Virus record (IMG/VR): IMGVR_UViG_3300043464_002177
From: a virus
Lineage: Duplodnaviria > Heunggongvirae > Uroviricota > Caudoviricetes
Length of the DNA: 53,273 nucleotides
Strand: one strand, 5' to 3'
The notes beneath the pieces were generated by a model. It had not been told where the DNA came from. It searched no databases and was given only the letters and a program-made list of their open reading frames with translations. Positions 2,622-16,389 of the stretch are shown piece by piece. The translations under genes were made by a program, and so were the position numbers. Numbering within the stretch: position 1 is the first letter of the stretch; every line of letters begins with the position of its first letter.

Positions 2622-4913
2622 TTAATTTAATTTTATTTTTAATTGTTTACCACTTTTATTAACTGCGTCGGTATTTGAAATTGATGTCAATCCCAACGTA
2701 CCTTGAATACCAATTTTTGGTACAAATATTATTTTATATTCAGTTGTTTTATCTAATATTGTTGAACCATCAGTAATTAAAGAACCGATTGTTACATAAT
2801 TCCCCTTGTTTGTTCCAAAATTAGTTGGGTTACCTTTTGTTACAAATTCTACCTTTTGAAATTCTAATGCTGTGTTATCATAATTTAATTGGAATTGCGT
2901 ACCAACTAATTCTTGTTGTAAAGGGTCCACCGATATTGTTACAACCACTTTCCCCCCAATATTTTCGCTCATAATCATTGCGTTAATTTCGTTTGAAATA
3001 GCGTTTGTTGTTAAACTCATACTTCTAATTGAACTACTAGCAACGCTGTTTACTGTTTGTTGAGCTGAATGTGATAAATTTACATCACCAACCCAAGTTA
3101 CATTTACGTTATATGTGTTATTCAAAGTACCACTATTCAAATTGAATGGGTATAAACTTCTAGTTGAATTGAATTGTGTGTTCCAATTCGTTTTAGTAAT
3201 TGCATCATATTCTGATTTACTATATAACTTCATTAAATAAGTTAATGTAGAATATTCAGTAAGTGATCTTGCCCCAGTTAAATGTTGTAATAATCTATAT
3301 GTGTCGGCCTCATTGAATAAACCATTTCCATCTATATCAGCATTCATAAATTGAATACCAGATGTGAATTCCAAACCACTTTGATTTCCAAATATTCCAC
3401 CGTTTGATAATTCTTTAAATGCAATAAACACATCTGATACTGTTACAATACTATTATATAGAGTGTTTAAATCAGTTTGATTGGTATATGATAAGTCGAT
3501 TCCATGTTGCTTAAATGCGGTGGTTGGTGTAAATGTAAACTCGGCTTTTAATCCGTAAAATCCATTTCCTGCCCTTATAGATGGCGCGAAAGACGAACCT
3601 GAGAAATTAAATTGTGTTGAGGTATAAACATAAACTTCAGTCCAACCATTTGCATCATATGAATTAAATGTTACAGGTCCGTTCCATAAATCAAATAATT
3701 GTAAACTACTAATTGTAGATGGATTGGTAAGTATACCATTTACTTCTCTACTATCAATACCAATTCTATATCTTTGGTTAGTTACATCATAATCATAAAT
3801 TACACACCATTCTACTTGTCCTGTGGTTGTTGTTGCTCTAATACCACCATTACTTACTTTTGCGGTATCTAAATCATTTGTAATATCAACTTTACCCAAC
3901 CCACTTAATACTCTTGATGTGTTAGTTGTTGTACCCCACACATTGTTTACATATCTGTTTGCCTTTGCTGAGAATTTGGTCTCATCTATATTACCACCAA
4001 AGTCAAAATTGAATCTTGCAGTTAATACCTCTCCGTTTGAATGTGTTACTGAATTTGTATAAAACTCTGTAAATGTTGCATCGTCAGGATTAGCCCAAGT
4101 TCCAAATTCAATCACATACGGATTTGAAAAATGGTTTGGTAAATCATTCCATTGAGAACCATTCCATTTAGTTACAGCATAATCTTCGTTACCACTATTG
4201 TTTGGTTCACCGGGTGCCCAGTTATTATATTGGCCTGGAATGTTTCCGTTTAGTTGTCCGTTATTTATTTTAATTAAAGTTCCAGCTTCAGGGCCCGCAT
4301 CAATTGTCCATCTAGCTTCACTTGCTTCATCAGTTAATGCAAACCAAATATTTGATTGAGGTACGTTATTAAAAATAAAAGCATCTTCATCTGCTGAAGT
4401 GATTGTTACTAAGTATCCTTGTTGTCCTTTGAATGTTTGTTGTGATGATAGTGTTCTAGCATTTGTATAAGTTGCTCCGGTTGATATTGGTCTATAAAAG
4501 TGTCCATTTGTTCCGTTATAAAAATATCCCGTCGGATTTACAGTTGCTGCTACCGATAGCGCGATATTACCTCTTACCGAACCTGTGTTTACTTTTAGAG
4601 ATGCTAAAGCTGTATTAATATTCGCCATCGTTCCCGTTACCACTAAACGAGTTTTATTACCAACTAAAGTAAAACCACTTGCAGCTGTTAAACCTGTTGT
4701 TGTGGTTAAATAAAAAGTTGTACCTGATGGTGGATTAACCAAACTGATTGATGCTAATATCGTTGCAGTAGAGTTAAATCCACTTAAACTAAATCCACTA
4801 GCATCTTGTCCCGTTGTGGATGGTAAAAATGATTTAGAGTCCGGAGCAGATACACTCTGTCCGAACCCTAAAAATGAGATTAGTAAAAAACATATTACTA
4901 ATAATTTTTTCAT
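2622..4913 (-). CDS. secreted C-type lectin domain protein with dockerin-like and C-terminal cohesin-like modules
   Basis: Signal peptide; C-type lectin motifs (GYLVTITS, YNNWAPGEPNN, EDYA, WND); EF-hand-like ADIDGNG..ADTYRLLQHL; C-terminal GTQFQLNYD cohesin-like strand. Confidence 0.7.
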   Translation of the reverse strand: MKKLLVICFLLISFLGFGQSVSAPDSKSFLPSTTGQDASGFSLSGFNSTATILASISLVNPPSGTTFYLTTTTGLTAASGFTLVGNKTRLVVTGTMANINTALASLKVNTGSVRGNIALSVAATVNPTGYFYNGTNGHFYRPISTGATYTNARTLSSQQTFKGQQGYLVTITSADEDAFIFNNVPQSNIWFALTDEASEARWTIDAGPEAGTLIKINNGQLNGNIPGQYNNWAPGEPNNSGNEDYAVTKWNGSQWNDLPNHFSNPYVIEFGTWANPDDATFTEFYTNSVTHSNGEVLTARFNFDFGGNIDETKFSAKANRYVNNVWGTTTNTSRVLSGLGKVDITNDLDTAKVSNGGIRATTTTGQVEWCVIYDYDVTNQRYRIGIDSREVNGILTNPSTISSLQLFDLWNGPVTFNSYDANGWTEVYVYTSTQFNFSGSSFAPSIRAGNGFYGLKAEFTFTPTTAFKQHGIDLSYTNQTDLNTLYNSIVTVSDVFIAFKELSNGGIFGNQSGLEFTSGIQFMNADIDGNGLFNEADTYRLLQHLTGARSLTEYSTLTYLMKLYSKSEYDAITKTNWNTQFNSTRSLYPFNLNSGTLNNTYNVNVTWVGDVNLSHSAQQTVNSVASSSIRSMSLTTNAISNEINAMIMSENIGGKVVVTISVDPLQQELVGTQFQLNYDNTALEFQKVEFVTKGNPTNFGTNKGNYVTIGSLITDGSTILDKTTEYKIIFVPKIGIQGTLGLTSISNTDAVNKSGKQLKIKLN

Positions 4914-4914
4914 A

Positions 4915-6567
4915 TTACTCGACGATTAAATCAACTTTATTTCCTTTTGCATCAACAGCATCTGATAAAACAAAGAAGAATAAACCGGCGGTATTAGTTA
5001 AAGTGGTTTTTGGTGTAAATATTAATTTATACGGTGTACCAACTTTAATTCTTGCAGTTTTAGTTTGATCAATAGAACCAAACGTTAATCTACGACCTTC
5101 ATGTGTTGTGAAGTTAGTGATTGTAGAACCTGCATCGAATATTACATCATCCAAACTTAATTTTGAATCATCATAATTCATGATAACTTGTAAGCCCGCC
5201 AATTCTGCTTTTGTTAATGTTGTTGTTAATATCACTTTACCGTTCTCTAATGTTGATGACACCCCTAGTTTAGCGGTTTCAACAGTGGCTGTTTTATATG
5301 CCATAGGTGTTGACATGCTCATAGTTTTTAATGTGTTTACTTCGCCATTTACAGAGTTGGTATATATTCCAGAACTTATTCTGCTAGCAATTACTGCTGG
5401 ATCAGATGAATGTGACCAGTTCAAATCACCACCCCAAGCAAACACTGCATGAACTTCTTTTATTGGTGTATCGATCAATACTCTATTCTTAACCACACCA
5501 TCTAACCAACTTTGATTTAATAAACCACTATACCATCTAACTGATGTTGAAGTTGATGTCGGGATCATTGCGGTTGTTGTCATGTTTTGTCCCATAACAT
5601 GGGCAAATAAAGCATATGAATCAGCTTCTCCAAACGTATTTGAATTAAGTGTAACTTTACCAACTCTTTTCTCCAATGCTGGTAGTGTAAAGAAGTTAGG
5701 TGTACCACTAATATCTGTTTGTGAATGCCCTAAAAATGCTTTATATGCATCTGATACTGTCACGATATTATTCATCCACGCTTTAGTCATTGCCGGTCCA
5801 ACAAATACACCAACTGAATCACCAACCTTAACTTGTGTTGTGAAAAGTGCTTCACCACTAGCATCTAATGGTAATTGAGCAATTGGTTGTTGTGACCAAT
5901 CGATATCACCACTACCATCTGATTTTAATCTCATTAATTGAACACTATGATCAGTAATTGTGTAACCTTGTGGAAATAATACTTTAACTTTAAATTGTGA
6001 TGTATTACCAACAACCCCAGTTAAAGATGACGAACCACCACCATATATTGTTCCAACATTAGCACCAGTTGTATCTGTACCTGTAGCTAAATCAATTTTA
6101 AAAATATTATTATAAGTGTTCTGATCTTTTAAAATGTATTTTTGTGTTGCTATTAATCCGTTAATAGATTGATCAGCTCTTTGAACTGTTAATTGACCAA
6201 CATTCCAGTCAGCGTTTACAGCATAATTCCAAGGTGTTAATCCATACTGAACATCTAAATTATTATCACCACCTTGACTATTATGTGTAAATTTATAGTT
6301 ATTCCAACCTGTATAAAAAGTTTGTGCTGATGATCCTTGGTTAAAAGCTGTTGAAACATATGTTAACGCTTTATTATTAAACTGATATCTAAACCAAATA
6401 TAACGTGGATTCTTTATTACAGTACCTTTTGTTAAATTATATCTAACAGTAATAGTATCACCAACCTTTAATCCACTTGCTGGTGTTAAAGATTGACTTA
6501 TTGTTAGTTGAGCAAATGACGAAAGAGATATCATGAATATCCCTAAAAATAAAATTAGTTTTTTCAT
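4915..6567 (-). CDS. secreted cohesin/dockerin-like domain protein
   Basis: Signal peptide; VGDTITV N-terminal and GLQVIMNYD C-terminal cohesin-like modules; shares VTVSD, GD(L/V)N.SHS and the C-terminal domain with the 763-aa neighbour. Confidence 0.65.
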   Translation of the reverse strand: MKKLILFLGIFMISLSSFAQLTISQSLTPASGLKVGDTITVRYNLTKGTVIKNPRYIWFRYQFNNKALTYVSTAFNQGSSAQTFYTGWNNYKFTHNSQGGDNNLDVQYGLTPWNYAVNADWNVGQLTVQRADQSINGLIATQKYILKDQNTYNNIFKIDLATGTDTTGANVGTIYGGGSSSLTGVVGNTSQFKVKVLFPQGYTITDHSVQLMRLKSDGSGDIDWSQQPIAQLPLDASGEALFTTQVKVGDSVGVFVGPAMTKAWMNNIVTVSDAYKAFLGHSQTDISGTPNFFTLPALEKRVGKVTLNSNTFGEADSYALFAHVMGQNMTTTAMIPTSTSTSVRWYSGLLNQSWLDGVVKNRVLIDTPIKEVHAVFAWGGDLNWSHSSDPAVIASRISSGIYTNSVNGEVNTLKTMSMSTPMAYKTATVETAKLGVSSTLENGKVILTTTLTKAELAGLQVIMNYDDSKLSLDDVIFDAGSTITNFTTHEGRRLTFGSIDQTKTARIKVGTPYKLIFTPKTTLTNTAGLFFFVLSDAVDAKGNKVDLIVE

Positions 6568-6569
6568 TT

Positions 6570-7112
6570 TTACTTTTTGTTAAAAAATACTTTGTTTATT
6601 AAAGACTCACAAGTCTTTTTAATTGCTGAAGAAAGTGCTTGTTGATTTATTTTATCACTTCCCTCATCAGTTATTAATGTTGATGTTGAAATCTCAGAAC
6701 TAGATTCTTCTGCAATAGCGTCTTTTATTTTTTTACCCGATTTATCTGTTAACGTACCCTTCATTGTTACTAAAGTCTCCTCAACATCGGAATGAAAAAC
6801 GGATATATTTCTTTTAGTTCTATTCACATCAAAATACATGATCTCTGAACTAAAAACTAAATCTGCTGATTCTTTATCTTCAACAATGTTGAATCCTTTT
6901 TCCTGAAGAATTTCCTCAAAGATGTTTTTACAACCAAAAGCCAAATTTCGATTGTTCGCTAACTTACCAATTTTGATTTTGTTCTCTACACCTGATATAT
7001 AAACTGATTTAGGATCTTCGATCGGATTTACTATATATGAGTATAATCCAAAGAACCCAAAAACAACTAATAACGGTAATAGAGACACGTTTAGTGTTTT
7101 ATTTCTTGCCAT
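6570..7112 (-). CDS. membrane-anchored periplasmic protein (CsgG/LptE-like alpha-beta fold, tentative)
   Basis: N-terminal TM segment then ..FEEILQEKGFNIV..ADL....I pattern; start moved to ATG at 7112 (MARNK) just after a TATTTAT motif. Confidence 0.55.
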   Translation of the reverse strand: MARNKTLNVSLLPLLVVFGFFGLYSYIVNPIEDPKSVYISGVENKIKIGKLANNRNLAFGCKNIFEEILQEKGFNIVEDKESADLVFSSEIMYFDVNRTKRNISVFHSDVEETLVTMKGTLTDKSGKKIKDAIAEESSSEISTSTLITDEGSDKINQQALSSAIKKTCESLINKVFFNKK

Positions 7113-7216
7113 ATTGATAAATATCACTAAGGCAACTACTAGTACACAACCTGCCCGATTTTTATATTATTTTATATTAATTTTTTATTTTTCTTGATTT
7201 TTAGAATACTTATTAT

Positions 7217-7224
7217 TATCTTTG
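7217..7224 (+). promoter_or_regulatory. Bacteroidota-type -7 promoter element (TATCTTTG) for leader 1 / tRNA array 1
   Basis: Matches TAnnTTTG consensus, with TTG upstream. Confidence 0.7.
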
Positions 7225-7253
7225 TTAAAGATTTAAAATTTAAAAAGAATTCA

Positions 7254-7352
7254 ATGAGACAACAAAAACATACAATGTCATTTATTATCTGCTCAAAATG
7301 GGCGGATGAGCGTGCTATGTCCGATAGTCTCGAAGATACTGATGTGGGTTAA
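7254..7352 (+). CDS. leader peptide of tRNA array 1 (32 aa, MRQQKHTMSFIICSKWADERAMSDSLEDTDVG)
   Basis: Short ORF between promoter and terminator; codons 8-24 all read by array-1 tRNAs. Confidence 0.8.
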   Translation: MRQQKHTMSFIICSKWADERAMSDSLEDTDVG

Positions 7353-7376
7353 ATTAGTTTAACTTAAAATATTAGA

Positions 7377-7410
7377 AAACCTCGGGACAAAATCTCGGGG
7401 TTTTTTGTTT
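7377..7410 (+). terminator. intrinsic terminator / attenuator upstream of tRNA array 1
   Basis: AAAACCTCGGGA-caaaa-TCTCGGGGTTTT stem followed by U-tract. Confidence 0.8.
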
Positions 7411-7412
7411 TT

Positions 7413-7482
7413 GGGCCGGATGTCAATGGCAGACCACCTGATTTGCAATCAGAGTGAATGGGTTCGATTCCCAACGTGTCCA
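7413..7482 (+). tRNA. trnA: tRNA-Ala(UGC), degenerate acceptor stem
   Basis: G3:U70 and A73, loop TT-TGC-AA, T arm ATGGG-TTCGATT-CCCAA; two mismatches in the acceptor stem. Confidence 0.65.
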
Positions 7483-7487
7483 CATAT

Positions 7488-7560
7488 TCTTAGGTAGCTC
7501 AATGGTGAGAGCACCCGCCTGATACGCGGAAGGTTGATAGTTCGAATCTATCTCTAAGAA
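7488..7560 (+). tRNA. trnI: tRNA-Ile(GAU)
   Basis: Cloverleaf; anticodon loop CT-GAT-AC. Confidence 0.9.
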
Positions 7561-7565
7561 CATAA

Positions 7566-7638
7566 GGAGATGAAGCTAACTTAGTAGAAGCGGAGGACTG
7601 AAAATCCTCAGGAATTGGAGCGTAACCAATCATCTCCA
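7566..7638 (+). tRNA. trnF: tRNA-Phe(GAA), atypical T loop
   Basis: GGAGATG/CATCTCC acceptor; loop CT-GAA-AA; T loop AGCGTAA. Confidence 0.85.
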
Positions 7639-7642
7639 CAAT

Positions 7643-7716
7643 GATCTCGTAGCTCAATTGGTTAGAGCACTACACTTTTAATGTAGGGGTTCTGCGTTCG
7701 AGTCGCAGCGGGGTCA
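7643..7716 (+). tRNA. trnK: tRNA-Lys(UUU)
   Basis: Cloverleaf; loop CT-TTT-AA. Confidence 0.92.
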
Positions 7717-7722
7717 CATTAC

Positions 7723-7793
7723 ATGGGTGTGGTGCAATGGTAGCATTCCGGTCTCCAAAACCGTCGATGGGAGTTCGAATCTCTCCACCCGTG
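7723..7793 (+). tRNA. trnW: tRNA-Trp(CCA)
   Basis: Cloverleaf; loop CT-CCA-AA; G73. Confidence 0.9.
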
Positions 7794-7807
7794 CTAAAAA
7801 TAAAATT

Positions 7808-8062
7808 ATGGATAATGACAACGTATTAAACAGATTAGTACCAAGATTAAAAAAAATAGGAATAGAGATTGAAATGTCTGGAAATATCCCTTGGATTTAT
7901 CTTGATAAAGTTAATGGGAATAGAGTAAAAAAAGAAGATTATTTCTGTGGCAATCACGGTTTTACAATTGCGTTTTATCCCATTAAACCTGATCAAAAAA
8001 TGGAACTAACAGATATAAAAGAGGTCTTTAGAATAATAAGGAAATATAAAACGGTCTCATAG
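7808..8062 (+). CDS. hypothetical phage protein inside tRNA array
   Basis: ATG at 7808 after A-rich leader (the track start 7727 lies inside tRNA-Trp); stop overlaps tRNA-Arg. Confidence 0.75.
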   Translation: MDNDNVLNRLVPRLKKIGIEIEMSGNIPWIYLDKVNGNRVKKEDYFCGNHGFTIAFYPIKPDQKMELTDIKEVFRIIRKYKTVS

Positions 8063-8123
8063 TTTAATGGAAAAACGTCTCGCTACGGACGAGATAATTG
8101 GGGTTCGAATCCCTGTGAGACCT
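8053..8123 (+). tRNA. trnR: tRNA-Arg(ACG)
   Basis: GGTCTCA/TGAGACC acceptor; loop CT-ACG-GA. Confidence 0.9.
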
Positions 8124-8183
8124 CTGTTCACAAAAACTTATTGTTCACGGTTCGTGAACAGCGAACAAATGTGAACAAAATAA

Positions 8184-8254
8184 GTCAGGTTGGCCGAGTG
8201 GTTAGGCTGAGGTCTGCAAAACCTCCCACATTGGTTCGAATCCAATACTTGACT
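8184..8254 (+). tRNA. trnC: tRNA-Cys(GCA)
   Basis: Loop CT-GCA-AA; U73. Confidence 0.92.
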
Positions 8255-8256
8255 CT

Positions 8257-8333
8257 GTGATTGATGTTCGTATGGTAGAACACTAGCTTGTGGCGCTAGA
8301 ATAGAGCGAGTTCGAATCTCGTCAATCACCCCA
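8257..8333 (+). tRNA. trnH: tRNA-His(GUG)
   Basis: Loop TT-GTG-GC; C73; encoded CCA; T rather than G at -1. Confidence 0.9.
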
Positions 8334-8334
8334 T

Positions 8335-8403
8335 TGTGGGGAGGTTAGGTAACCCGTTTGGTCTCATAAGCCAGATATCCAGGTTCGATTCCTGGCCCCG
8401 CAA
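8335..8403 (+). tRNA. trnM: tRNA(CAU), probable elongator Met with shortened D arm
   Basis: TGTGGGG/CCCCGCA acceptor; loop CT-CAT-AA; D loop only ~4 nt. Confidence 0.7.
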
Positions 8404-8435
8404 CAAATAGATTTGAAATATTAAAAATAATTTCT

Positions 8436-8443
8436 TATCTTTG
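8436..8443 (+). promoter_or_regulatory. internal Bacteroidota-type promoter (TATCTTTG) upstream of initiator tRNA
   Basis: TAnnTTTG with TTTG at 8412-8415. Confidence 0.7.
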
Positions 8444-8453
8444 TTAAAGAAAT

Positions 8454-8525
8454 CGCGAGATAGAGCAGCGGTAGCTCGGAAGGCTCATAACCTTTAGGTC
8501 GGGGGTTCGATTCCCTCTCTCGCAA
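8454..8525 (+). tRNA. trnfM: initiator tRNA-fMet(CAU)
   Basis: CGCGAGA..TCTCGCA with C1:A72 mismatch; loop CT-CAT-AA. Confidence 0.85.
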
Positions 8526-8543
8526 CTAAAACTTAATAATACT

Positions 8544-8672
8544 ATGGCGAAAGCACCTAGAACATCGAAAAGAGTTGCAAAAAAAGCTAGTAAAGCACTT
8601 AAAAGTGGTAGCACTAGTAAAACAACAAAAACTTTAGCTGGTTCAGCTTTACGTCAGCGTAGAACTAAGTAA
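8544..8672 (+). CDS. small very basic protein (42 aa, MAKAPRTSKRVAKKASKALKSGSTSKTTKTLAGSALRQRRTK)
   Basis: Manual translation; A-rich upstream; K/R/S/A-rich. Confidence 0.7.
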   Translation: MAKAPRTSKRVAKKASKALKSGSTSKTTKTLAGSALRQRRTK

Positions 8673-8677
8673 AAAAA

Positions 8678-8862
8678 TACAGGTGACGACGGAGGTGGAA
8701 CCCCTCTGTCTATAAATCTCAACACCCGCCTTGATTCGCGGTATTATAGCGGTGAGAGTAGAGTTACTACAAGTCGGGAGTAATTACCCCAATAACAAAA
8801 ATGTAACCACCAATGTAGAAATATGTTGGTTATGATGTACAAAAGGGTACAAAAAACCTGTA
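8678..8862 (+). ncRNA. candidate multi-stem structured RNA
   Basis: Closing TACAGGT/ACCTGTA helix enclosing GACGGAGG/CCTCTGTC, TCTCA/TGAGA, TAACCA/TGGTTA and TGTAC/GTACA stems; no ORF. Confidence 0.5.
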
Positions 8863-8947
8863 AATTATTGAGACTAACTCAACGAGGACTTTGTCAACCA
8901 GAGCATGACTCGGATGGTGCAATTTAAGGTGAGTTAGAATCAAACAC

Positions 8948-9021
8948 GGATTGTTGGTGAAGTTGGTTATCATGCTACCCTGTCACGGTAGAGTTCACGG
9001 GTTCGAGTCCCGTACAGTCCG
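8948..9021 (+). tRNA. trnD: tRNA-Asp(GUC)
   Basis: Loop CT-GTC-AC; G73. Confidence 0.92.
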
Positions 9022-9029
9022 CATTTATT

Positions 9030-9116
9030 GGAGGCTTGCCAGAGTGGTTGAATGGAACGGTCTTGAAAACCGTCATACTGGAAACGGTATCTGGGGTTCG
9101 AATCCCTGAGCCTCCG
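9030..9116 (+). tRNA. trnS: tRNA-Ser(UGA)
   Basis: Long variable arm; loop CT-TGA-AA; G73. Confidence 0.93.
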
Positions 9117-9121
9117 CACTT

Positions 9122-9193
9122 GCTCGGTTCGACTAGTGGTTAGGTCACCACCCTTTCACGGTGGTTGCACGGGTTCGAATCCCGTACCGAGTA
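9122..9193 (+). tRNA. trnE: tRNA-Glu(UUC)
   Basis: Loop CT-TTC-AC. Confidence 0.92.
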
Positions 9194-9271
9194 CAATATT
9201 TTTTTATATCAAGATATTGATTTACAATATTTTATTCTGTATATTTATCATATTATTAATATTTATAATAT

Positions 9272-9574
9272 ATGATAGATAAAATCACATTATCGTTAAT
9301 GTTATTTTTTAACACATTAACATCATCTATCGACCCAAGTCTTTCCGATGAAAGAAAGTCAGTTAATCAAATAAAAAAAGAGATTAAGTCTCTTGAAAGA
9401 AAGATTGAATGGGTTGAAGTAACAGATGAGAATTACGCTAGCAGGGCCGTCAAAACCAAAGAAATCACGGACGAGATTACCAAATTGAATGGTAAAATTG
9501 TAAAGATTGAGAAGGTAGCAATTTTAAAAGAGAAATGGGCTAAGGAAGATTCCTTGTCCAAATCAAAAAAATGA
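9272..9574 (+). CDS. hypothetical coiled-coil protein with N-terminal signal-like segment
   Basis: ORF track; two TATTTAT motifs upstream. Confidence 0.75.
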   Translation: MIDKITLSLMLFFNTLTSSIDPSLSDERKSVNQIKKEIKSLERKIEWVEVTDENYASRAVKTKEITDEITKLNGKIVKIEKVAILKEKWAKEDSLSKSKK

Positions 9575-10020
9575 AAAAAATTTTTTTAGTGCTAACGTTA
9601 CTTTTGGGAGTGGAAGTCGTAGCAAATGGACAAGAGTGGTTTATAACCGCCACTCGAAAAGGTGGTCCATCAGATGGTTATATAACAGGTGCTTTTATGA
9701 AAAAAGGTTGGGGATTCTATGCGGGTCTTCCATATGGTGAATTGAGTAATCAAAATGGTGGAATCGTAATTCCTCCTGGCGTCAATACCAAAACAGGAAA
9801 CGTATCAGATAACATGAAGTTCGGTGTCCTTAGACAAGTAAAAGAGGACAAGGCGATTGTTGGATTTGGATTACAACCAACAATTGGTGGGAACAAACCA
9901 AATTTTCTTATAATGTACAATCCACTTAGACCAAGTAGTGTTATAAATCTATGGACAATTGGTAATGTTGTTGGTGATGATTTAACATTAGGACTTGGAT
10001 TATCATATAAAATAAAATAA
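9571..10020 (+). CDS. secreted, possibly small outer-membrane beta-barrel protein
   Basis: Signal peptide; amphipathic strands, C-terminal GLGLSYKIK. Confidence 0.6.
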   Translation: MKKIFLVLTLLLGVEVVANGQEWFITATRKGGPSDGYITGAFMKKGWGFYAGLPYGELSNQNGGIVIPPGVNTKTGNVSDNMKFGVLRQVKEDKAIVGFGLQPTIGGNKPNFLIMYNPLRPSSVINLWTIGNVVGDDLTLGLGLSYKIK

Positions 10021-10045
10021 TTTAGTTAACTATTGATAGTTTTCG

Positions 10046-10053
10046 TATATTTG
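10046..10053 (+). promoter_or_regulatory. Bacteroidota-type promoter (TATATTTG) for leader 2 / tRNA array 2
   Basis: TAnnTTTG 17 nt before the leader ATG. Confidence 0.7.
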
Positions 10054-10070
10054 CATATACTTATTAAACG

Positions 10071-10178
10071 ATGAAGAATATAAATAACATATTAACGAGT
10101 ACAAGACCCCTTAACAATGGTAATGGGTATGGTGTGCAACCGTTAAATTACTTATGTTCGGATATTAATAGAGAATAA
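10071..10178 (+). CDS. leader peptide of tRNA array 2 (35 aa, MKNINNILTSTRPLNNGNGYGVQPLNYLCSDINRE)
   Basis: Short ORF between promoter and terminator; codons 3-28 all read by array-2 tRNAs. Confidence 0.85.
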   Translation: MKNINNILTSTRPLNNGNGYGVQPLNYLCSDINRE

Positions 10179-10201
10179 TAAAATCTTAAACTTATATCAA
10201 G

Positions 10202-10235
10202 ACCCGAACAAACTAAAAAATGTTCGGGTTTTTTT
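10202..10235 (+). terminator. intrinsic terminator / attenuator upstream of tRNA array 2
   Basis: ACCCGAACA-loop-TGTTCGGGT plus U-tract; competing TGTTCGG inside the leader ORF. Confidence 0.85.
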
Positions 10236-10293
10236 ATGTTATTTTTTATTCTTATATTTGAATTAGTTCTTTGACATATTGGAAAATCGTAAT

Positions 10294-10379
10294 GCCTGGG
10301 TGATGAAATCGGTATACATGCAAGACTTAAAATCTTGTGGGCCGTAAGGCCCGTGCGGGTTCGACCCCCGCCCCAGGTA
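10294..10379 (+). tRNA. trnL: tRNA-Leu(UAA)
   Basis: Long variable arm; loop CT-TAA-AA. Confidence 0.93.
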
Positions 10380-10384
10380 CAATT

Positions 10385-10457
10385 GGTCTGGTAGCTCAGT
10401 GGATAGAGCAACTGCCTTCTAAGCAGTAGGTCATTGGTTCGAATCCAATCCGGATCA
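10385..10457 (+). tRNA. trnR: tRNA-Arg(UCU)
   Basis: Loop CT-TCT-AA. Confidence 0.93.
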
Positions 10458-10459
10458 CT

Positions 10460-10597
10460 AAGATAATGGTCTGATGTTATTATGATTGTCGACAAATCAT
10501 GGTAACTATTAAACAGACAGCACCCTCTGCCGATGCATCGTAAAACTATTACTAAGCAGTTAAGATTGGAACGAGACGGGTATTCCAACATTATCTT
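10460..10597 (+). ncRNA. candidate multi-branch structured RNA between tRNAs
   Basis: AAGATAATG/CATTATCTT closing helix with GTCTG/CAGAC, CTGC/GCAG and TTGGAA/TTCCAA internal stems. Confidence 0.5.
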
Positions 10598-10602
10598 TAT
10601 TT

Positions 10603-10676
10603 TGGGAATTAGCGTAGTCCGGTATCGCGCTTGGTTTGGGACCAAGAGGCCGTAGGTTCGAATCCTGCATTCCCAA
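10603..10676 (+). tRNA. trnP: tRNA-Pro(UGG)
   Basis: Loop TT-TGG-GA. Confidence 0.92.
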
Positions 10677-10681
10677 CAAAA

Positions 10682-10753
10682 GCTGATGTAGCTCAACGGC
10701 AGAGCAATTGACTGTTAATCAATAGGTTGAGATATCGTAATTCTCCATCAGCG
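10682..10753 (+). tRNA. trnN: tRNA-Asn(GUU), atypical T loop
   Basis: Loop CT-GTT-AA; T loop ATCGTAA; G73. Confidence 0.85.
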
Positions 10754-10760
10754 CAACAAT

Positions 10761-10841
10761 GGCCGAGTGGTGAAATGGGAGACACGCTAGTTTTAGGCAC
10801 TAGTGTCGAAAGACGTGAGAGTTCGAATCTCTCCTTGGTCA
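10761..10841 (+). tRNA. trnL: tRNA-Leu(UAG)
   Basis: Loop TT-TAG-GC; variable arm. Confidence 0.92.
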
Positions 10842-10846
10842 CAAAA

Positions 10847-10926
10847 TGGGGTATCGCATAGCGGCAATTGCGGCTGACTGTAAATCAGCTCCTTAGGGTT
10901 CGGCGGTTCGAGTCCGTCTACCCCAA
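10847..10926 (+). tRNA. trnY: tRNA-Tyr(GUA)
   Basis: Loop CT-GTA-AA; variable arm. Confidence 0.92.
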
Positions 10927-10940
10927 CAAATAAAAATATT

Positions 10941-11060
10941 ATGAACAGAGAAGAACATTTAATTAAAACATTTCCAACTAAAGAAGGGAAAACATATATT
11001 CAATCTTTAGATGAGCATAATTCAAAAAAAGGAAAAAAAATGAAAAAAGAAAAAAAATAA
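10941..11060 (+). CDS. small lysine-rich hypothetical protein (39 aa)
   Basis: Manual translation MNREEHLIKTFPTKEGKTYIQSLDEHNSKKGKKMKKEKK. Confidence 0.5.
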   Translation: MNREEHLIKTFPTKEGKTYIQSLDEHNSKKGKKMKKEKK

Positions 11061-11068
11061 AAATATAT

Positions 11069-11175
11069 GCCGGAGTGGCGGAAAGAGGTATGTACAGCCT
11101 TGAGACGTCCCCGAACTAGGAAGGGTGGTGTATCCGAAATGGACATCGTGTGAGTAACCAATCTCTCCTCCGGCA
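11069..11175 (+). ncRNA. tRNA-Leu-like RNA with D-loop insertion and non-canonical anticodon and T loops
   Basis: Perfect GCCGGAG/CTCCGGC acceptor + A73, Leu-type GCGGAA..AGACG D arm, extra hairpin, no TTCG motif. Confidence 0.6.
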
Positions 11176-11182
11176 CCGCATT

Positions 11183-11259
11183 GGACTTGTAGCTCAGTTG
11201 GTTAGAGCACTTCACTCATAATGAATAGGTCCCTGGTTCGAGCCCAGGCTGGTCCACCA
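11183..11259 (+). tRNA. trnI: tRNA(CAU), probable Ile2 (lysidine-modified, reads AUA)
   Basis: GGACTTG acceptor, A73, loop CT-CAT-AA, CCA encoded; Ile2 identity is inferred (ATA codons occur in leader 2). Confidence 0.75.
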
Positions 11260-11262
11260 AAT

Positions 11263-11335
11263 AGAAGATTAGCTCAGATGGAAGAGCGCTTGCCTTACAT
11301 GCAAGATGTCACTGGTTCGATCCCGGTATCTTCTA
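11263..11335 (+). tRNA. trnV: tRNA-Val(UAC)
   Basis: Loop CT-TAC-AT. Confidence 0.92.
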
Positions 11336-11341
11336 CAATAA

Positions 11342-11413
11342 GCCTCTTAAGCATTGCAGGCGATGCGCATGACTTGTAATCATGATAACTCGGTTCGATT
11401 CCGGGCGGAGGCT
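11342..11413 (+). tRNA. trnT: tRNA-Thr(UGU)
   Basis: Loop CT-TGT-AA. Confidence 0.9.
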
Positions 11414-11418
11414 CACAA

Positions 11419-11491
11419 GCGAGTATAGTATAATGGCTCATTATGCCTTCCTTCCAAGTAGGATATGTCAGTTCGATTCTGACTACTCGCT
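11419..11491 (+). tRNA. trnG: tRNA-Gly(UCC)
   Basis: GCGAGTA/TACTCGC acceptor, U73; loop CT-TCC-AA. Confidence 0.92.
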
Positions 11492-11570
11492 CAATTCAAG
11501 TACCCGTATCGCACAGTAGGGTTAAATAAGATGGGAACTCTGTTGCGAGAGCCAGAATGCTTGAAATTAT

Positions 11571-11641
11571 TGTCCTTTGGTGTAACGGTAGCACAGGTGT
11601 TTTTGGTGCATCTAGTTGGGGTTCGAATCCCTGAGGGACAA
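11571..11641 (+). tRNA. trnQ: tRNA-Gln(UUG)
   Basis: Loop TT-TTG-GT. Confidence 0.9.
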
Positions 11642-11645
11642 CAAT

Positions 11646-11731
11646 GGAGGGTTACCCAAGTTGGTGAAGGGGGCAGTTTGCTAAACTGTTAGGTCATTCG
11701 TGGCGCGAGGGTTCGAGCCCCTCACTCTCCG
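11646..11731 (+). tRNA. trnS: tRNA-Ser(GCU)
   Basis: Loop TT-GCT-AA; long variable arm; G73. Confidence 0.93.
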
Positions 11732-11736
11732 CATAT

Positions 11737-11881
11737 TGTAGTGTGACGAAATTTGGCAAACGTACCGTCCTGTCTCGGCGGTGTGGAGCATCTGATAAAC
11801 GTAGGATAATGGGTTGACCACAAAGCGCGCAATGTCCTATGGCTAAAGACCACTTGGATGGTTCGAATCCTCCCACTACAG
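11737..11881 (+). ncRNA. tRNA-like RNA with ~74-nt variable arm (GUC in anticodon position)
   Basis: TGTAGTG/CACTACA acceptor, class-II-type D arm, CCGTC/GGCGG stem with loop CTGTCTC, TTCGAAT T loop, long hairpin insertion 11782-11855. Confidence 0.7.
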
Positions 11882-11910
11882 CTAAAATAATTATATTAAA
11901 ATGAAATGAA

Positions 11911-12372
11911 ATGAAACAATTTAAAACTCTCTATGGAACTAATATTCCTGATTTGATTGGGTATGTAAGAGAATACATCTCAACAAGAGAGAACGTAGAA
12001 ATTCTCATTGGGTCTGACTCACAATGTTACGGGCATAAAAAAACTATCTATGGTGTTGTAATTGCATTATATACACCAGGGAAAGGTGCTCATGTGTTGT
12101 GTAATCGTGAAACTACCCCGATGGAATATAATACCCCATCTAGATTGTTAAATGAAGTTTGGAGATCCATTGAAATTGCTGAATGGATGAAAGAAAATGG
12201 TTTACCTAAAGCCACATGGATTGATATTGATCTTAACCCAGATCCAAAATTTAAATCAAACTCAGTTTTAAGACAAGCAGTTGGATTAGTTGAAGGTATG
12301 GGTTATAAGGTAAGGTATAAACATTTAGGAGCATTAACAACATATGCTGCAAACCATTTAGTTAGAATTTAA
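11911..12372 (+). CDS. RNase H-like YkuK/DUF458 family protein
   Basis: Motifs IGSDSQ, RLLNEVWRS, IDIDLN recalled as typical of the family. Confidence 0.7.
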   Translation: MKQFKTLYGTNIPDLIGYVREYISTRENVEILIGSDSQCYGHKKTIYGVVIALYTPGKGAHVLCNRETTPMEYNTPSRLLNEVWRSIEIAEWMKENGLPKATWIDIDLNPDPKFKSNSVLRQAVGLVEGMGYKVRYKHLGALTTYAANHLVRI

Positions 12373-12420
12373 AAAAAAAATATTTTTTTACAAATTCTTC
12401 TTTTTTTGAAATATATTATC

Positions 12421-12428
12421 TATCTTTG
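12421..12428 (+). promoter_or_regulatory. Bacteroidota-type promoter (TATCTTTG) upstream of the large ncRNA
   Basis: TAnnTTTG with TTTG ~-33; followed by boxA-like AGTTCTTTGAA at 12447. Confidence 0.7.
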
Positions 12429-12464
12429 TAAAAGAGTTAAGGAAATAGTTCTTTGAATTAAAAA

Positions 12465-13268
12465 TATTGGCCGCCTATGGTCGATTAAAATAAACCATGA
12501 AAGTGGGATAAAGTGAATCTGAATTAGTTGTTTGGGTTTGCGGTTTCAGCAATGGAACTTGAGTAGGCAAGCGGGATATCATTAAGCCGTAAGTACTGAG
12601 GGTGACACTGTAGGGAAAGTGGTTTGGTGACTGAGCGATACCGGTCGTTTGGTTGAGGTGGGAACACCAATAAGAATAACTCGTAGAATTGTTGTGAGAA
12701 ATATGACCTCCAATCATATTATTGCGGGATTCAATACAATGGGAATCTTAAAACCGAAAGGTATGGTTGTGTACAGGTGGTGCTGTTACAATCCTTGATT
12801 TAAATCTACCAAGGTTTTTATCTCGAAGGGGTCCAGAAGTGTGGAGGCAGGGATGTCTCAGAGGGTAGTTTAGTATCGTGTCGTCCAAAAGATGGCATGG
12901 CTGGCGGCGAGCCACTACCTTCCAGATCGGTAACTAAAATCATTTTGTTAATTCAGGTTTAACAACTTATAAACAAAAGGAAAAGTGCTCGTCAGTCATT
13001 AGAGACAGGTGACTACATAGTCGTGAGGGGTTCACGGCCACAAAGGGTCCCAAGCCCAATGTGAGTTTCCAGAAAGTTCTCTAGTCCCGCAAGGACTAAT
13101 CGGGGTGGCAACCTCGAAGAGTAATAAGTAAGGTGAGAGTATCTAATGACTTAAGGATTGGTTAATCTAATTGACCGTCACTGGTTGGTACAGTTCAAAA
13201 GACTGTGGATATGAGAGGAAACAATAATCTTTCTAAAGTCAACTACTAAAACTTGTAATCTCAGAGTT
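12465..13268 (+). ncRNA. large structured ncRNA, GOLLD-like
   Basis: ~800 nt with no credible sense ORF, GC-rich, many GNRA/CAAAA-capped hairpins, long-range pairing 12596-12632 with 13237-13264, own promoter and terminator, next to a phage tRNA array; family assignment not computed. Confidence 0.65.
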
Positions 13269-13343
13269 TTTATTTTTTTAGTTTAGAAAAACTAAATGGT
13301 GGAAGAGACCTCACAAAAATATTAACCGTGCGGCCCCGAATTG

Positions 13344-13372
13344 AGTCAGAAGAAATTCTGACTTTTTTTTTG
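13344..13372 (+). terminator. intrinsic terminator after large ncRNA
   Basis: AGTCAGAA-gaaa-TTCTGACT + long U-tract. Confidence 0.85.
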
Positions 13373-13403
13373 TTTTTAAAAAAAAATTAAGTATATTATG
13401 TGA

Positions 13404-14150
13404 ATGAGAATCATTTGCATATCAGATACACATAGTCTTCACCCAATGATGGGTTATGATCTACCTGAAGGTGATGTTTTAATCCATTCGGGTGATTGTA
13501 CAAATAAAGGTCAACGTCAAGATGTTGAGAATTTTGTTCATTGGTTTATGGATCAAAAATATGATACAAAGATCTTTGTTGCTGGTAATCACGATTTTGC
13601 ATTTGAAGAACATAGATACCCACATCACAAAGGAGATTACGATTGGTATTATAATTTAATGGATAAAGAAACATTGTCACAATCCGATGTAGTTTATTTA
13701 GAAGATAACCAATGTATAATTGACTCACCAGAATTCTCCAGACCAATAAAGTTTTGGGGTAGTCCATGGCAACCAGAATTTTATAATTGGGCATTTAATT
13801 TACCAAGACTAGGTGAAGATCTTCAAAAGTATTGGTCAATGATTCCTGAAGATACTGATGTATTAATAACACATGGGCCGCCTCATGGATGTAGAGATTT
13901 TGTTAGTAATTGGAGACAAGGAGACATGAACGTTGGTTGTGAATTACTTGCGTTCCATGTGGAACGTGTAAAACCATTATTACATGTATTTGGTCATATT
14001 CACGGGGCATATGGAGGAATGTATAAAAATGATACATTATTTGTTAATGCTGCCATCTGTACTGAACAATATATTCCATCAAATAAACCTATCATCGTTG
14101 AATTAAAAGAATACGATGGCGAAATTGTAGCAACTTATGTCGAAGAATAA
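13404..14150 (+). CDS. calcineurin-like metallophosphoesterase
   Basis: DTH, GD, GNHD, THGPP, GHIH motifs. Confidence 0.92.
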   Translation: MRIICISDTHSLHPMMGYDLPEGDVLIHSGDCTNKGQRQDVENFVHWFMDQKYDTKIFVAGNHDFAFEEHRYPHHKGDYDWYYNLMDKETLSQSDVVYLEDNQCIIDSPEFSRPIKFWGSPWQPEFYNWAFNLPRLGEDLQKYWSMIPEDTDVLITHGPPHGCRDFVSNWRQGDMNVGCELLAFHVERVKPLLHVFGHIHGAYGGMYKNDTLFVNAAICTEQYIPSNKPIIVELKEYDGEIVATYVEE

Positions 14151-14820
14151 CGAACCAATAAGTGTTGTTATACCAACACGAAAAATTGATGATACATACT
14201 TAAAGCATGTTGAGAAAATGTTCTCTCATCCTAGAACTGAAATTTTAATTTATGAGAATGATGGTAGCGAACCATTAGCCAAAATTTATAATGATGGATT
14301 AAAAGATGCTAAGAATGATATTATTGTTTTCATGCATGATGATTTAATTCTTGAAACAAAAAATATTACACCTAAAGTCATTAGGTTATTTGATAAAAAC
14401 CCTCAATATGGTATTATTGGTTTAGCCGGTACAGATAACCTTCTTAGTGGAATGTGGTGGCAAGATAGATCATCAATGTATGGTATTGTTGGTCATGAAC
14501 ACGAAGGTAAGCGTCATGTCAATCATTACTCAAAAGGTGATTACAGTGAAAACTTAAAAGAGGTGATCGTTGTTGATGGGTTATTTATGATGATTCATAG
14601 AGAAAGATTAAAACATACTTTCAATGAACAGTTTGAAGGGTTTCATTTTTATGATCTACCAATATGTGTTGAAAATCATTTAAATAGTGTTAAAATTGGT
14701 GTGACAACCAAAATTAGAGTTACACATAAATCGGTCGGTATGGTTAATAAAAAATGGGAGAAGAATAAATTATTCTTTGAAGCATTATATGATAAGAATT
14801 TCCCTTTGAAAATCTCTTAA
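14137..14820 (+). CDS. glycosyltransferase family 2-like protein
   Basis: YNDG, VFMHDD, VDGLF, FHFYDL motifs. Confidence 0.8.
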   Translation: MSKNNEPISVVIPTRKIDDTYLKHVEKMFSHPRTEILIYENDGSEPLAKIYNDGLKDAKNDIIVFMHDDLILETKNITPKVIRLFDKNPQYGIIGLAGTDNLLSGMWWQDRSSMYGIVGHEHEGKRHVNHYSKGDYSENLKEVIVVDGLFMMIHRERLKHTFNEQFEGFHFYDLPICVENHLNSVKIGVTTKIRVTHKSVGMVNKKWEKNKLFFEALYDKNFPLKIS

Positions 14821-14827
14821 CTATTTA

Positions 14828-14835
14828 TACCTTTG
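14828..14835 (+). promoter_or_regulatory. Bacteroidota-type promoter (TACCTTTG) of tmRNA
   Basis: TAnnTTTG followed by boxA-like AGTTCTTTAAA. Confidence 0.65.
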
Positions 14836-14855
14836 TAATAGTTCTTTAAAATAAT

Positions 14856-15255
14856 GGGGGTGTCTGGTATTGATTGGCGTTGATATGGTAAATGGGCACG
14901 TAGTCGGATGTCATCTACGACTTTAATCCACGGTGGTAAAATTTAAACGGCAACGTTTATAACAACATGGAAGCTTGCGGCTTGATCGCAACTTCTAACG
15001 TAGCAGTAGCCTAAGGCGAAACTATATCGGGTCGACTGGCATATAACCTAGGAACAGAAGCCTTCAAGGTGTAATACCGCCTCAGAGTGTTGGAGAATGG
15101 TCTGATTGTCTCTTTAAAATCTAGTCAGAAACAGGTTTGTTGTGTAGCTGTGTATGAAACCAACTATTTGTCAGTTGAGAACCAATTGAATAAACGTGTA
15201 GTCCATTTATGATATGGCGAGCAAGACACGGGTTCGAATCCCGTCACCTCCACCA
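14856..15255 (+). ncRNA. ssrA: tmRNA; tag (A)GNVYNNMEACGLIATSNVAVA at 14949-15014
   Basis: GGGGGTG..ATTGA 5' end, T arm GGTTCGAATCC, CACCTCC-A-CCA 3' end with G3:U70, internal tag ORF ending in hydrophobic AVA-stop. Confidence 0.93.
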
Positions 15256-15256
15256 T

Positions 15257-15283
15257 AAACCCATCTTCGGATGGGTTTTTTTA
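15257..15283 (+). terminator. intrinsic terminator after tmRNA
   Basis: AAACCCATC-ttcg-GATGGGTTT + U-tract. Confidence 0.88.
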
Positions 15284-15423
15284 TTTGGTACCTCTATAAA
15301 CGAACAAAAGGTCCGAAGACCCTTTGCCGAGATTTAGAATACCTCCTTTCGTTTTTTTTCTATTATCATTTGATGGCGACCAAACCAATCAAACTCTGAT
15401 AATAAATATCTTTTAAACAACAA

Positions 15424-16389
15424 TTATTTAAATTCTTGTAGGTATTTTCTTAATATTTTTTTTCTTGATTCTTGCATAATAGAAGAATCTGATCCTGGAA
15501 CTTCAAATGGATCTTTTACACTGGTAGCTTGATTTGTTGAACTGTTACTTGCTGCTGACCCATCATTTAATTTTGGCCAAGTATCTTTACCAACAGCACC
15601 ATCATCTTCTAATCCGTTAGCTGCCTGAAAAGCCATAACCATTCTTTTTGTTCTGTTACCAAAAATACCGTCTGGTTTATCATTTTTACTTACGTGAATA
15701 AATCCTTTAGCAATTAATAATTCTTGAATCTTTGTAACAATATCACCTCTCATTCCCACTTTAACAAATTTACCTGCCGCTAAATCATCACCAGTTAAAT
15801 TTGTATCAGTAATTGTTGTGGTGTTAGACGATGAAGATGATGAAGATGATGAGGCTGAACTAGTAGTCCATTTATTAGTTTTAGATGAATAAGTACTACC
15901 ATCATCTAATTTAATAGTATATGCATCTGTTCCGTCACAAGACCATGAGCCATTCTTTTTACTAAAACTACTATGAAATCTATTATTAGAAAAAAATGCC
16001 CAGTAAGCTGGTTTTTTGGTATCATCATCAACAGCATCATATCTTACATAATTATGACTTTTAACAAATTTAAGATCAGTGTCTTTTAAAAGGCAATCAA
16101 AAATACCACCAGCCGTATTAGATGAACCACCGCAATATGTTAATTTTTTTGCCCAAGTAAGATCGCATGCGAATTTTTCAAAAAATGCTTTTTCGGTAAA
16201 TGGCGGTTCAAAAATACCCATATTAGTGATATTGGTAAAAAGGGCTTTAACAGACGCCTCGTCTTTAAAATTCGCTGCAGTCCAATCAGGATATCCTTTT
16301 GGATATTTTTGAGCAAATTTAACAACCTCCTTATTTTTGGTTGCAAATCCTAAAACATCATTGAATAATTTTTTTCTTTTATCTTCCAT
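15424..16389 (-). CDS. peptidoglycan-binding domain protein
   Basis: PG_binding_1-like VTKIQELL..DGIFG..TKRMVMAFQ..NGLEDDGAVGKDTW; Ser/Thr-rich linker. Confidence 0.8.
   Translation of the reverse strand: MEDKRKKLFNDVLGFATKNKEVVKFAQKYPKGYPDWTAANFKDEASVKALFTNITNMGIFEPPFTEKAFFEKFACDLTWAKKLTYCGGSSNTAGGIFDCLLKDTDLKFVKSHNYVRYDAVDDDTKKPAYWAFFSNNRFHSSFSKKNGSWSCDGTDAYTIKLDDGSTYSSKTNKWTTSSASSSSSSSSSNTTTITDTNLTGDDLAAGKFVKVGMRGDIVTKIQELLIAKGFIHVSKNDKPDGIFGNRTKRMVMAFQAANGLEDDGAVGKDTWPKLNDGSAASNSSTNQATSVKDPFEVPGSDSSIMQESRKKILRKYLQEFK

Follow-up and report, generated by a model that had tools for sequence, protein, structure and literature searches.

What decides when a tailed phage makes its own transfer RNAs (tRNAs)? 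The question is raised by two tRNA arrays, each preceded by a promoter box, a short open reading frame (ORF) and a hairpin, in a 53,273-nucleotide (nt) stretch of DNA (the window) from the Caudoviricetes virus IMGVR_UViG_3300043464_002177, on whose scale all window coordinates are given. The source phage is large, AT-rich (33% GC) and uncultured, and recurs in lake-water metagenomes. In an earlier, sequence-only reading of the window, the second array had been proposed to be controlled by a leader-peptide attenuator written in the codons that its tRNAs decode. The comparisons described here indicate that each of the two arrays is probably gated by a transcription attenuator that is timed by a ribosome and senses tRNA supply. 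The anatomy of the units, their conservation, and the covariation of codons with tRNAs and within stems can be read from the sequence itself and are considered first.

Two leader units precede the two tRNA arrays

The window encodes 24 tRNAs called by ARAGORN, as well as a transfer-messenger RNA (tmRNA) and a GOLLD RNA identified with Rfam. The elements that had been placed ahead of array 2 (a promoter box at 10046, an ORF at 10071-10178, a hairpin with a T-run to 10235, and then 12 tRNAs) were all found at those positions (Table 1), with ACCCGAACA/TGTTCGGGT as the core of the terminator stem. Array 2 runs in the order Leu-UAA, Arg-UCU, Pro-UGG, Asn-GUU, Leu-UAG, Tyr-GUA, CAU, Val-UAC, Thr-UGU, Gly-UCC, Gln-UUG, Ser-GCU. 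In leader 2, codons 3-28 had been claimed to be decoded throughout by these tRNAs and to cover all 12 of them. This is the case under two assumptions, namely if U34 is allowed to read whole four-fold boxes and the CAU tRNA at 11183 is taken to be Ile2; four of the codons fail under strict wobble. Coverage of the 12 families is already complete within codons 3-23. The pairing claimed between TGTTCGG, directly behind this run, and CCGAACA in the terminator stem was also recovered, as 7 base pairs (bp).

A twin unit stands ahead of array 1. Codons 5-20 of its leader, KHTMSFIICSKWADER, include codons for the Trp, Cys, His and Arg-CGT families of that array. Attention was drawn by the Ala codons of leader 1 to an uncalled tRNA-Ala directly behind terminator 1. 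This gene was missed by ARAGORN in the window; it has a cloverleaf fold with G3:U70 and A73 and an imperfect acceptor stem, its sequence is kept in 16 further loci, and homologous copies are called by ARAGORN in four of the related loci described below (L009, L026, L032 and L033). As the first tRNA of array 1 lies so close behind the terminator, there is no room for a bypass promoter, and read-through is the only visible route into the array. The 25 tRNAs of both arrays have U34 in every four-fold box and, with four-way wobble, all 61 sense codons are partitioned between the arrays. The complement looks like a minimal, self-sufficient decoding set.

Assignment of the CAU tRNA at 11183 as Ile2 is supported by the codon-box matching for Ile (see below) and by the division of ATA and ATG between the leaders: ATA occurs twice in leader 2 and not at all in leader 1, which contains ATG twice; leader 2 has no internal ATG. 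One of the other two CAU tRNAs has an initiator-like C1xA72 mismatch.

Table 1. Coordinates of the two leader units and their tRNA arrays in the window
Feature	Coordinates	Strand	Basis and remarks
Predicted -7 promoter box TATCTTTG of leader 1	7217..7224	+	Sequence; kept in relatives
Leader ORF 1	7254..7352	+	32 sense codons and stop; all 12 array-1 families appear within codons 5-20
Region 2 of leader 1, GTCTCGA (antiterminator strand)	7327..7333	+	Codons 25-27; pairs with TCGGGAC 7382-7388, 7 bp with one G-U
Predicted intrinsic terminator 1	7375..7410	+	13-bp stem (7375-7405), 5-nt loop, T-run
tRNA-Ala(UGC), first gene of array 1	7413..7482	+	Rfam 30.1 bits; starts ~7 nt past terminator 1 stem
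Rest of tRNA array 1	7488..9194	+	12 tRNAs; ARAGORN and Rfam
Predicted Bacteroidota-type -7 promoter box TATATTTG of leader 2	10046..10053	+	Sequence; TAnnTTTG box kept at same ATG distance in most W-type and L031-type relatives
Leader ORF 2	10071..10178	+	ATG, 35 sense codons and stop; codons 3-28 (10077-10154) are the checklist for array 2
Region 2 of leader 2, TGTTCGG (antiterminator strand)	10155..10161	+	Codons 29-31; 7 bp with CCGAACA 10204-10210
Predicted intrinsic terminator 2	10199..10235	+	12-bp stem (10199-10210 / 10221-10232), 10-nt loop, T-run to 10235
Second TATATTTG, possible bypass promoter	10253..10260	+	Between terminator 2 and first tRNA
Conserved motif GTTCTTTGACATATTGG ahead of tRNA-Leu(UAA)	10266..10282	+	In nearly all relatives, including those without second TAnnTTTG
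tRNA array 2	10294..11732	+	12 tRNAs; ARAGORN and Rfam

The match between leader codons and array tRNAs exceeds chance

The correspondence between leader codons and array anticodons, the centre of the sequence-only reading, stands well above chance. The leader-by-array codon table (22, 9; 6, 28) gives a Fisher p=1.7e-5, with each leader covering its own array's families 12/12. In window genes, 53% of codons are array-2 codons, and 26 random codons would cover all 12 array-2 families with P ~0.002; for 31 random codons and the 12 array-1 families, all of which leader 1 covers, P is ~3e-4. No other array-2 run in any of the 53-kb window's six frames is as long as the 26-codon run of leader 2, and none of the others reaches 18 codons. 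The window has 160 small ATG-initiated ORFs of 25-45 codons; no more than three of them cover either array 12/12, and two of the three are the leaders, directly upstream of the matching arrays. The third, at 15271-15399, was taken as a chance match; it is not array-exclusive (22 versus 19 codons) and no tRNAs come after it.

Composition could in principle produce such a match from a spurious frame encoding an uncharged, Asn/Gly/Thr-rich peptide. The tRNAs for charged residues are all in array 1, except for AGR Arg (Arg-UCU is in array 2), so that uncharged peptides lean towards array 2, and the definition of a match needs both lax wobble and the Ile2 assumption. An origin of this kind is nevertheless regarded as refuted, being excluded by the window-wide run statistic, by the complementary second leader, and by the synonymous-box test and the conservation and covariation in 48 leaders that are described next.

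Leader content tracks array content in related phages

Relatives were found through the neighbouring 153-amino-acid protein (phrog_11311), which led to 80 IMG/VR loci at 97-52% identity. Leaders were searched for in these loci as a hairpin with a T-run that is followed by a tRNA and has an ORF ending just upstream, which yielded 48-49 distinct leaders; the sensing region was defined as codon 2 up to region 2. Intron-tolerant ARAGORN calls were spurious and were left out. Among the 80 loci, tRNA content and order vary, and nearly every leader covers all tRNA families of the array downstream. In two-array loci the sensing regions cover 326/328 of the own-array families and 69/325 of those of the other array, and homologous leaders thus keep the codon-anticodon correspondence, as the attenuator proposal had implied. 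The arrangement of leader, terminator and tRNAs is kept in 48 distinct relatives, as are the reading frame and the place of the stop codon; across distinct leaders the stop codon lies 18-33 nt from the hairpin, and the last sense codon comes 2-10 codons after region 2. Homologues of leader ORF 2 are present in at least 18 distinct relatives, and indels in their sensing part are multiples of three.

It had also been suggested that leader codons should change with array content, and relocations of Val and Thr, Asp and Glu, and Thr and Gly tRNAs are indeed mirrored in the leaders. In L031-34 and L046, Val-UAC and Thr-UGU are in array 1; leader 1 of these loci reads ...CSKWAEVADIC..., having gained AEVAD and extra Thr, and leader 2 is without Thr codons. 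In L026, where Asp and Glu tRNAs are relocated, one leader has gained D and E (IQETPNSVNGYDVPEVY) and the KWADER of the other has become KWTAIRH. The L051-type leader (KHCRSYQFSLKAAWMNRPVSEDI) is without Thr and Gly only, and in these loci the Thr and Gly tRNAs are upstream of that leader. In single-array relatives, the one leader encodes 19-20 different amino acids within 34-43 codons (P 0.001-0.007). The more tRNA families there are, the longer the sensing region tends to be (Spearman 0.38, p=0.01).

The Ile, Arg and Ser tRNAs, which are split between the arrays, allow the synonymous codon boxes to be compared. Type-1 leaders use the array-1 box in a ratio of 74:1, and type-2 leaders the array-2 box in a ratio of 58:9. 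Since the choice of codon box follows the leader's own array while the amino acid stays constant, the match is to the tRNAs and not to the peptide.

A separate Leu/Thr/Gly leader was predicted for the small Leu-UAA/Thr/Gly/Gly block upstream of the L051-type leader. It is not there: the block follows an ordinary 63-amino-acid gene and has no terminator ahead of it. Two other loci, L014 (1079-1153) and L017 (6850-6924), have a 24-codon ORF (MDDFFPQDHIGMSLSGMEEHENGL) and a weak hairpin ahead of tRNA-Glu; this ORF could be a small third leader or a product of chance.

The antiterminator strand co-varies with the terminator

The leader family has at least eight different terminator stems, and for each of them the tail of its own leader holds a complementary segment. 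When duplex energies with the leader's own terminator arm were compared with those for foreign arms, the mean z was -2.2, with z<-2 in 27/53 and a rank usually of 0-2 of ~45; for region 2 of leader 2, z was -2.1 and the rank 1 of 41. In the alignment of leader 1 (17 relatives), the eight antiterminator column pairs hold in 117/130 cells (90%), as against 7-49% in slid registers, and double changes between A-T and G-C, as well as changes among T-G, T-A and C-G, are found in these columns. All 18 aligned leader-2 relatives keep the GTTCGG of region 2 unchanged, even L020, in which its reading frame differs. RNAalifold recovered the terminator stems from the leader alignments with compensatory changes, which for terminator 2 (18 sequences) are at the stem ends.

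The competition between the two pairings was modelled by folding. In the equilibrium fold of the full-length leader RNA the terminator always wins, also with ribosome masks applied, and the switch must therefore be kinetic. A kinetic state was accordingly represented by a transcript cut before the 3' arm of the terminator, with the ribosome footprint imposed. In this state the probability of the antiterminator is 0.8-0.98 as long as the A site is within codons 1-24 of leader 2 or codons 1-21 of leader 1, and it is 0 from the switch point at codon 25/26 (leader 2) or 22/23 (leader 1). The antiterminator is thus predicted to form only while the ribosome is inside the codon-matched run, in line with the freeing of the antiterminator by stalling that the attenuator proposal had envisaged, and all 12 families of each array are sampled before the leader's switch point. 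It also forms in the cut transcript without a ribosome.

Could the leader RNAs bind tRNAs by codon-anticodon pairing without a ribosome, following the logic of a T-box? Both show more structure than their shuffled counterparts (z -3.7 and -4.3). However, the matched triplets lie in one frame running from ATG to stop over 20-45 codons, with indels in multiples of three, and no conserved helix other than the terminator was recovered. A scan of 6500-16000 against Rfam 15 at E up to 0.1 gave only tRNAs, tmRNA, GOLLD and weak chance matches, and no T-box, His_leader, Trp_leader or other leader family. A ribosome-free sensor is therefore very improbable.

A proposed ribosome-timed attenuator and its alternatives

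We infer from these observations that the leaders are translated, that ribosome and polymerase are kinetically coupled, that the hairpins terminate transcription efficiently enough to matter, and that some physiological trigger acts on the leaders. In the mechanism proposed, transcription would start at the promoter just upstream of the 32-35-codon leader ORF, the first part of which would serve as a checklist, with at least one codon for each tRNA species of the array behind it and few others. Region 2, just past the checklist, would be able to pair with the 5' arm of the terminator (region 3). An undelayed ribosome would cover region 2 before the polymerase has finished the terminator, which would then form and leave the array silent. 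A ribosome that is slowed at any checklist codon by scarcity of the aminoacyl-tRNA, or that has never loaded, would leave region 2 to pair with region 3, with read-through into the tRNA genes as the outcome. The new phage tRNAs would speed translation of the leader and close the switch, and tRNA supply would in this way be under negative feedback. The trigger might be cleavage by an anticodon nuclease, which is one of several possibilities.

The sequence-only reading had likened the geometry of leader 2 to stalling attenuators of the trp/his type. The twin unit, the conservation, the matching of codon boxes and the co-varying region 2 largely bear out what this predicts at the sequence level; a conserved 1:2 helix was not recovered.

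Several points weigh against an attenuator of this kind. Leader translation and termination at the hairpins are predictions from the sequence. The single-sequence minimum-free-energy folds of both leaders show a 1:2 pairing, but RNAalifold found no conserved 1:2 protector helix in the leader alignments. The antiterminator has only 7 bp in the window, and the terminator is favoured over it at equilibrium, as described above. Because the antiterminator forms in the absence of a ribosome, the predicted default state is ON, and an untranslated leader would read through, unlike that of trp. Under strict wobble, CCC, CTT and two GGT codons of leader 2 drop out and the 26-codon run is broken; the Ile2 identity of the CAU tRNA is likewise deduced from the leaders and codon boxes. 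Leader 1 contains the array-2 codons AGA, CAA (twice) and ACA, mostly at codons 2-4. Some tRNAs are listed by one codon only, and none by a long run as in hisL or pheL; with so few codons per tRNA, the leader may respond little to small tRNA shortages. In the L051-type loci the small tRNA block further upstream has no leader, the counts over relatives are not phylogenetically independent, and a promoter at 10253 could feed array 2 independently.

The last of these points belongs to a constitutive layout, in which the hairpin at 10199-10235 would end an upstream unit (array 1 and the genes at 9272-10020), array 2 would be driven from 10253, and the small ORF would be incidental or an independent peptide gene. 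A bypass at 10253 had already been raised as a caveat by the sequence-only reading, and this stands for array 2, where a good TAnnTTTG recurs at this position in ~12/18 leader-2 lineages, so that the array may also have unregulated transcription; it does not extend to array 1, which has no room for such a promoter. No terminator was seen between array 1 and leader 2, which means that the hairpin at 10199-10235 ends that unit too. Six metatranscriptomes contain 5-7% of the window's sampled words, and contigs from four of them, which are of low depth, give neither ends nor strand and may represent DNA carry-over, include one that runs from the gene at 9571-10020 into leader 2 (X18, 9960-10125) and one that spans terminator 2 (X17, 10151-10301). 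However, the constitutive layout leaves unexplained the checklist, the codon-box matching, the tracking of tRNA relocations and the co-varying region 2. It is inapplicable to array 1 and to many relatives, in which the first tRNA is 6-12 nt past the terminator with no room for a promoter, and six lineages have the leader but not the second promoter (L004, L009, L014, L024, L026 and L035). As a full account of the locus it is improbable.

Alternatively, the switch might depend on translation but have another output, such as processing or stability of the tRNA precursor, or access of Rho, with the hairpin acting as a processing or stability element. The checklist and the covariation indicate that decoding is sensed and not which output follows, a conserved motif (GTTCTTTGACAT) lies between the terminator and the first tRNA, and the equilibrium fold always favours the hairpin. 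Yet every unit has a GC-rich stem followed by a T-run, the signature of an intrinsic terminator, and region 2 pairs specifically with the 5' arm of this stem and co-varies with it. An output other than termination is therefore considered rather unlikely, and a ribosome-timed transcription attenuator remains the probable explanation for both units.

Relation to known attenuators

Attenuators with leaders that respond to several amino acids are known, for example the ilvGMEDA leader (Ile, Leu and Val) and the thr leader (Thr and Ile), alongside the single-amino-acid leaders trpL, hisL and leuL. The pheL leader is a further single-amino-acid leader-peptide attenuator (PMC3082878). The phage units resemble these enterobacterial leaders in having a short leader ORF, here predicted to be translated, with regulatory codons at which a stall would free the antiterminator strand, an intrinsic terminator before the regulated genes, and mutually exclusive 2:3 and 3:4 pairings. 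Control in the enterobacterial systems, trp included, is likewise kinetic, with the terminator thermodynamically the stronger structure.

The differences are as clear. The phage units are phage-borne and would regulate tRNAs and not biosynthetic or aminoacylation enzymes, and the signal that the new product could correct would be the abundance of tRNA and not the level of an amino acid. Where amino-acid leaders have runs of one to three kinds of codon, the phage leaders list 12 to 25 tRNA species, some by a single codon, and would therefore time total decoding, not the supply of one amino acid. Unlike in trp, the phage leaders have no conserved 1:2 protector helix and the untranslated state is predicted to be ON. 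To our knowledge, all ribosome-mediated attenuators described so far regulate enzymes of amino-acid biosynthesis or aminoacylation. In pheST and other synthetase attenuators and in T-boxes, as in the phage units, the decoding machinery is regulated by the state of the cognate tRNA pool. However, pheST senses one amino acid through Phe codons, a T-box binds one uncharged tRNA without a ribosome and has a defined fold that is absent from the phage leaders, and neither is known to control tRNA genes.

A literature search found no description of leader-peptide control of tRNA genes. In a named phage collection, blastn with window positions 9500-12000 matched only tRNAs, and tblastn with leader 1 gave no match. 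The same arrangement was, however, found in the cultured Caulobacter phage phiCbK (JX100813), where a sigma70-like promoter and an ORF at 51341-51439 (MSKTYRQFVRQIQVVRNIRAG...), rich in Gln, Phe, Val, Ile and Gly, precede an annotated terminator (51465-51502) and then the tRNAs Phe Val Ile Ile Val Gln Gln Gly (in L082 coordinates, ORF 4342-4440, terminator 4466-4503 and tRNAs 4632-5587). The logic of promoter, mini-ORF, terminator and tRNA block is that of the window units, in another lineage and host, although the interspersed Arg codons of the phiCbK ORF are not explained by the block behind it. Visibility of this logic in a cultured phage makes it directly testable. In the same phage, gp083, which is rich in Ser, Leu, Pro and Lys, and a terminator precede the tRNAs Pro Pro Lys Lys Leu Leu Leu Ser Ser.

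Further features of the RNA-gene block

Two recurrent motifs adjoin the leader units. One, like ATACTTATTA or CATATATTTATAAAC, adjoins the leader start codons (7205-7216 and 10054-10070, and upstream of the leaders in L044-L075) in all lineages, including those without TAnnTTTG, and is a candidate for a phage-specific promoter or initiation signal. The other, GTTCTTTGACAT(A/T)(T/G)TGG, is found ~17 nt upstream of the first tRNA past a terminator, or between two tRNAs (10266-10282 in the window, and L004-L046, L026, L051/58/60/61 and L034/L046), and might be a processing signal or a promoter element.

Within array 2, an insert of 255 nt (10928-11182) separates tRNA-Tyr from the CAU tRNA and is absent from relatives such as L004. 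It contains a Lys/Glu-rich ORF of 39 codons (10941-11060), as well as a stretch that resembles a tRNA and has an acceptor-like stem (11067-11182). The ORF was rejected as a leader, as it shows no codon match, no terminator goes with it, and the insert around it is absent from relatives. Behind tRNA-Ser(GCU), at 11733-11880, there is a tRNA-like RNA that has a long internal insertion. In array 1, a tRNA-free gap of 421 nt holds a very basic ORF of 42 codons (8544-8672; rich in Lys, Arg, Ser, Thr and Ala), where relatives have tRNA-Thr. Just downstream of the arrays, a full-length GOLLD RNA (Rfam 321.6 bits) and the tmRNA, at 12861-13267 and 14856-15255, form one RNA-gene block with them.

Implications

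Phage tRNAs have been described as counter-defence against tRNA-cleaving immunity, in work on PARIS (PMC11464382) and on retron effectors (PMC11555353). The portions of these reports drawn on here deal with what phage tRNAs do and not with how their expression is controlled. The likeness to the present units is that phage tRNAs replace host tRNAs lost during infection, which is a plausible reason to sense a failure of decoding; no tRNA-targeting defence has been linked to the source phage or to its host. It is possible, though doubtful, that the checklist leaders are inducible counter-defence sensors. The loss of one tRNA species, through anticodon nucleases, PARIS-like or retron effectors, Schlafen-type tRNases or the shut-off of the host by the phage, would then stall the ribosome and switch on only the block that holds the replacement.

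If the proposed attenuation operates, a principle known from amino-acid supply would extend to the supply of tRNAs, and the codons sensed would no longer be of one to three types but would span the whole code. Why and when phages use their tRNA genes is a long-standing question, and the units suggest that decoding speed is gauged for the codons of the phage's own tRNAs and that these tRNAs are made on demand. The arrangement may allow tRNA regulons to be predicted from sequence alone, may aid in spotting tRNA genes that gene finders have missed, and offers a compact natural design for reporters of tRNA availability. Should the counter-defence interpretation prove true, the phage would sense attack with the code split into two regulons, and the same logic in unrelated phages (giant Bacteroidota phages and phiCbK) would point to a general viral strategy of monitoring host translation codon by codon.

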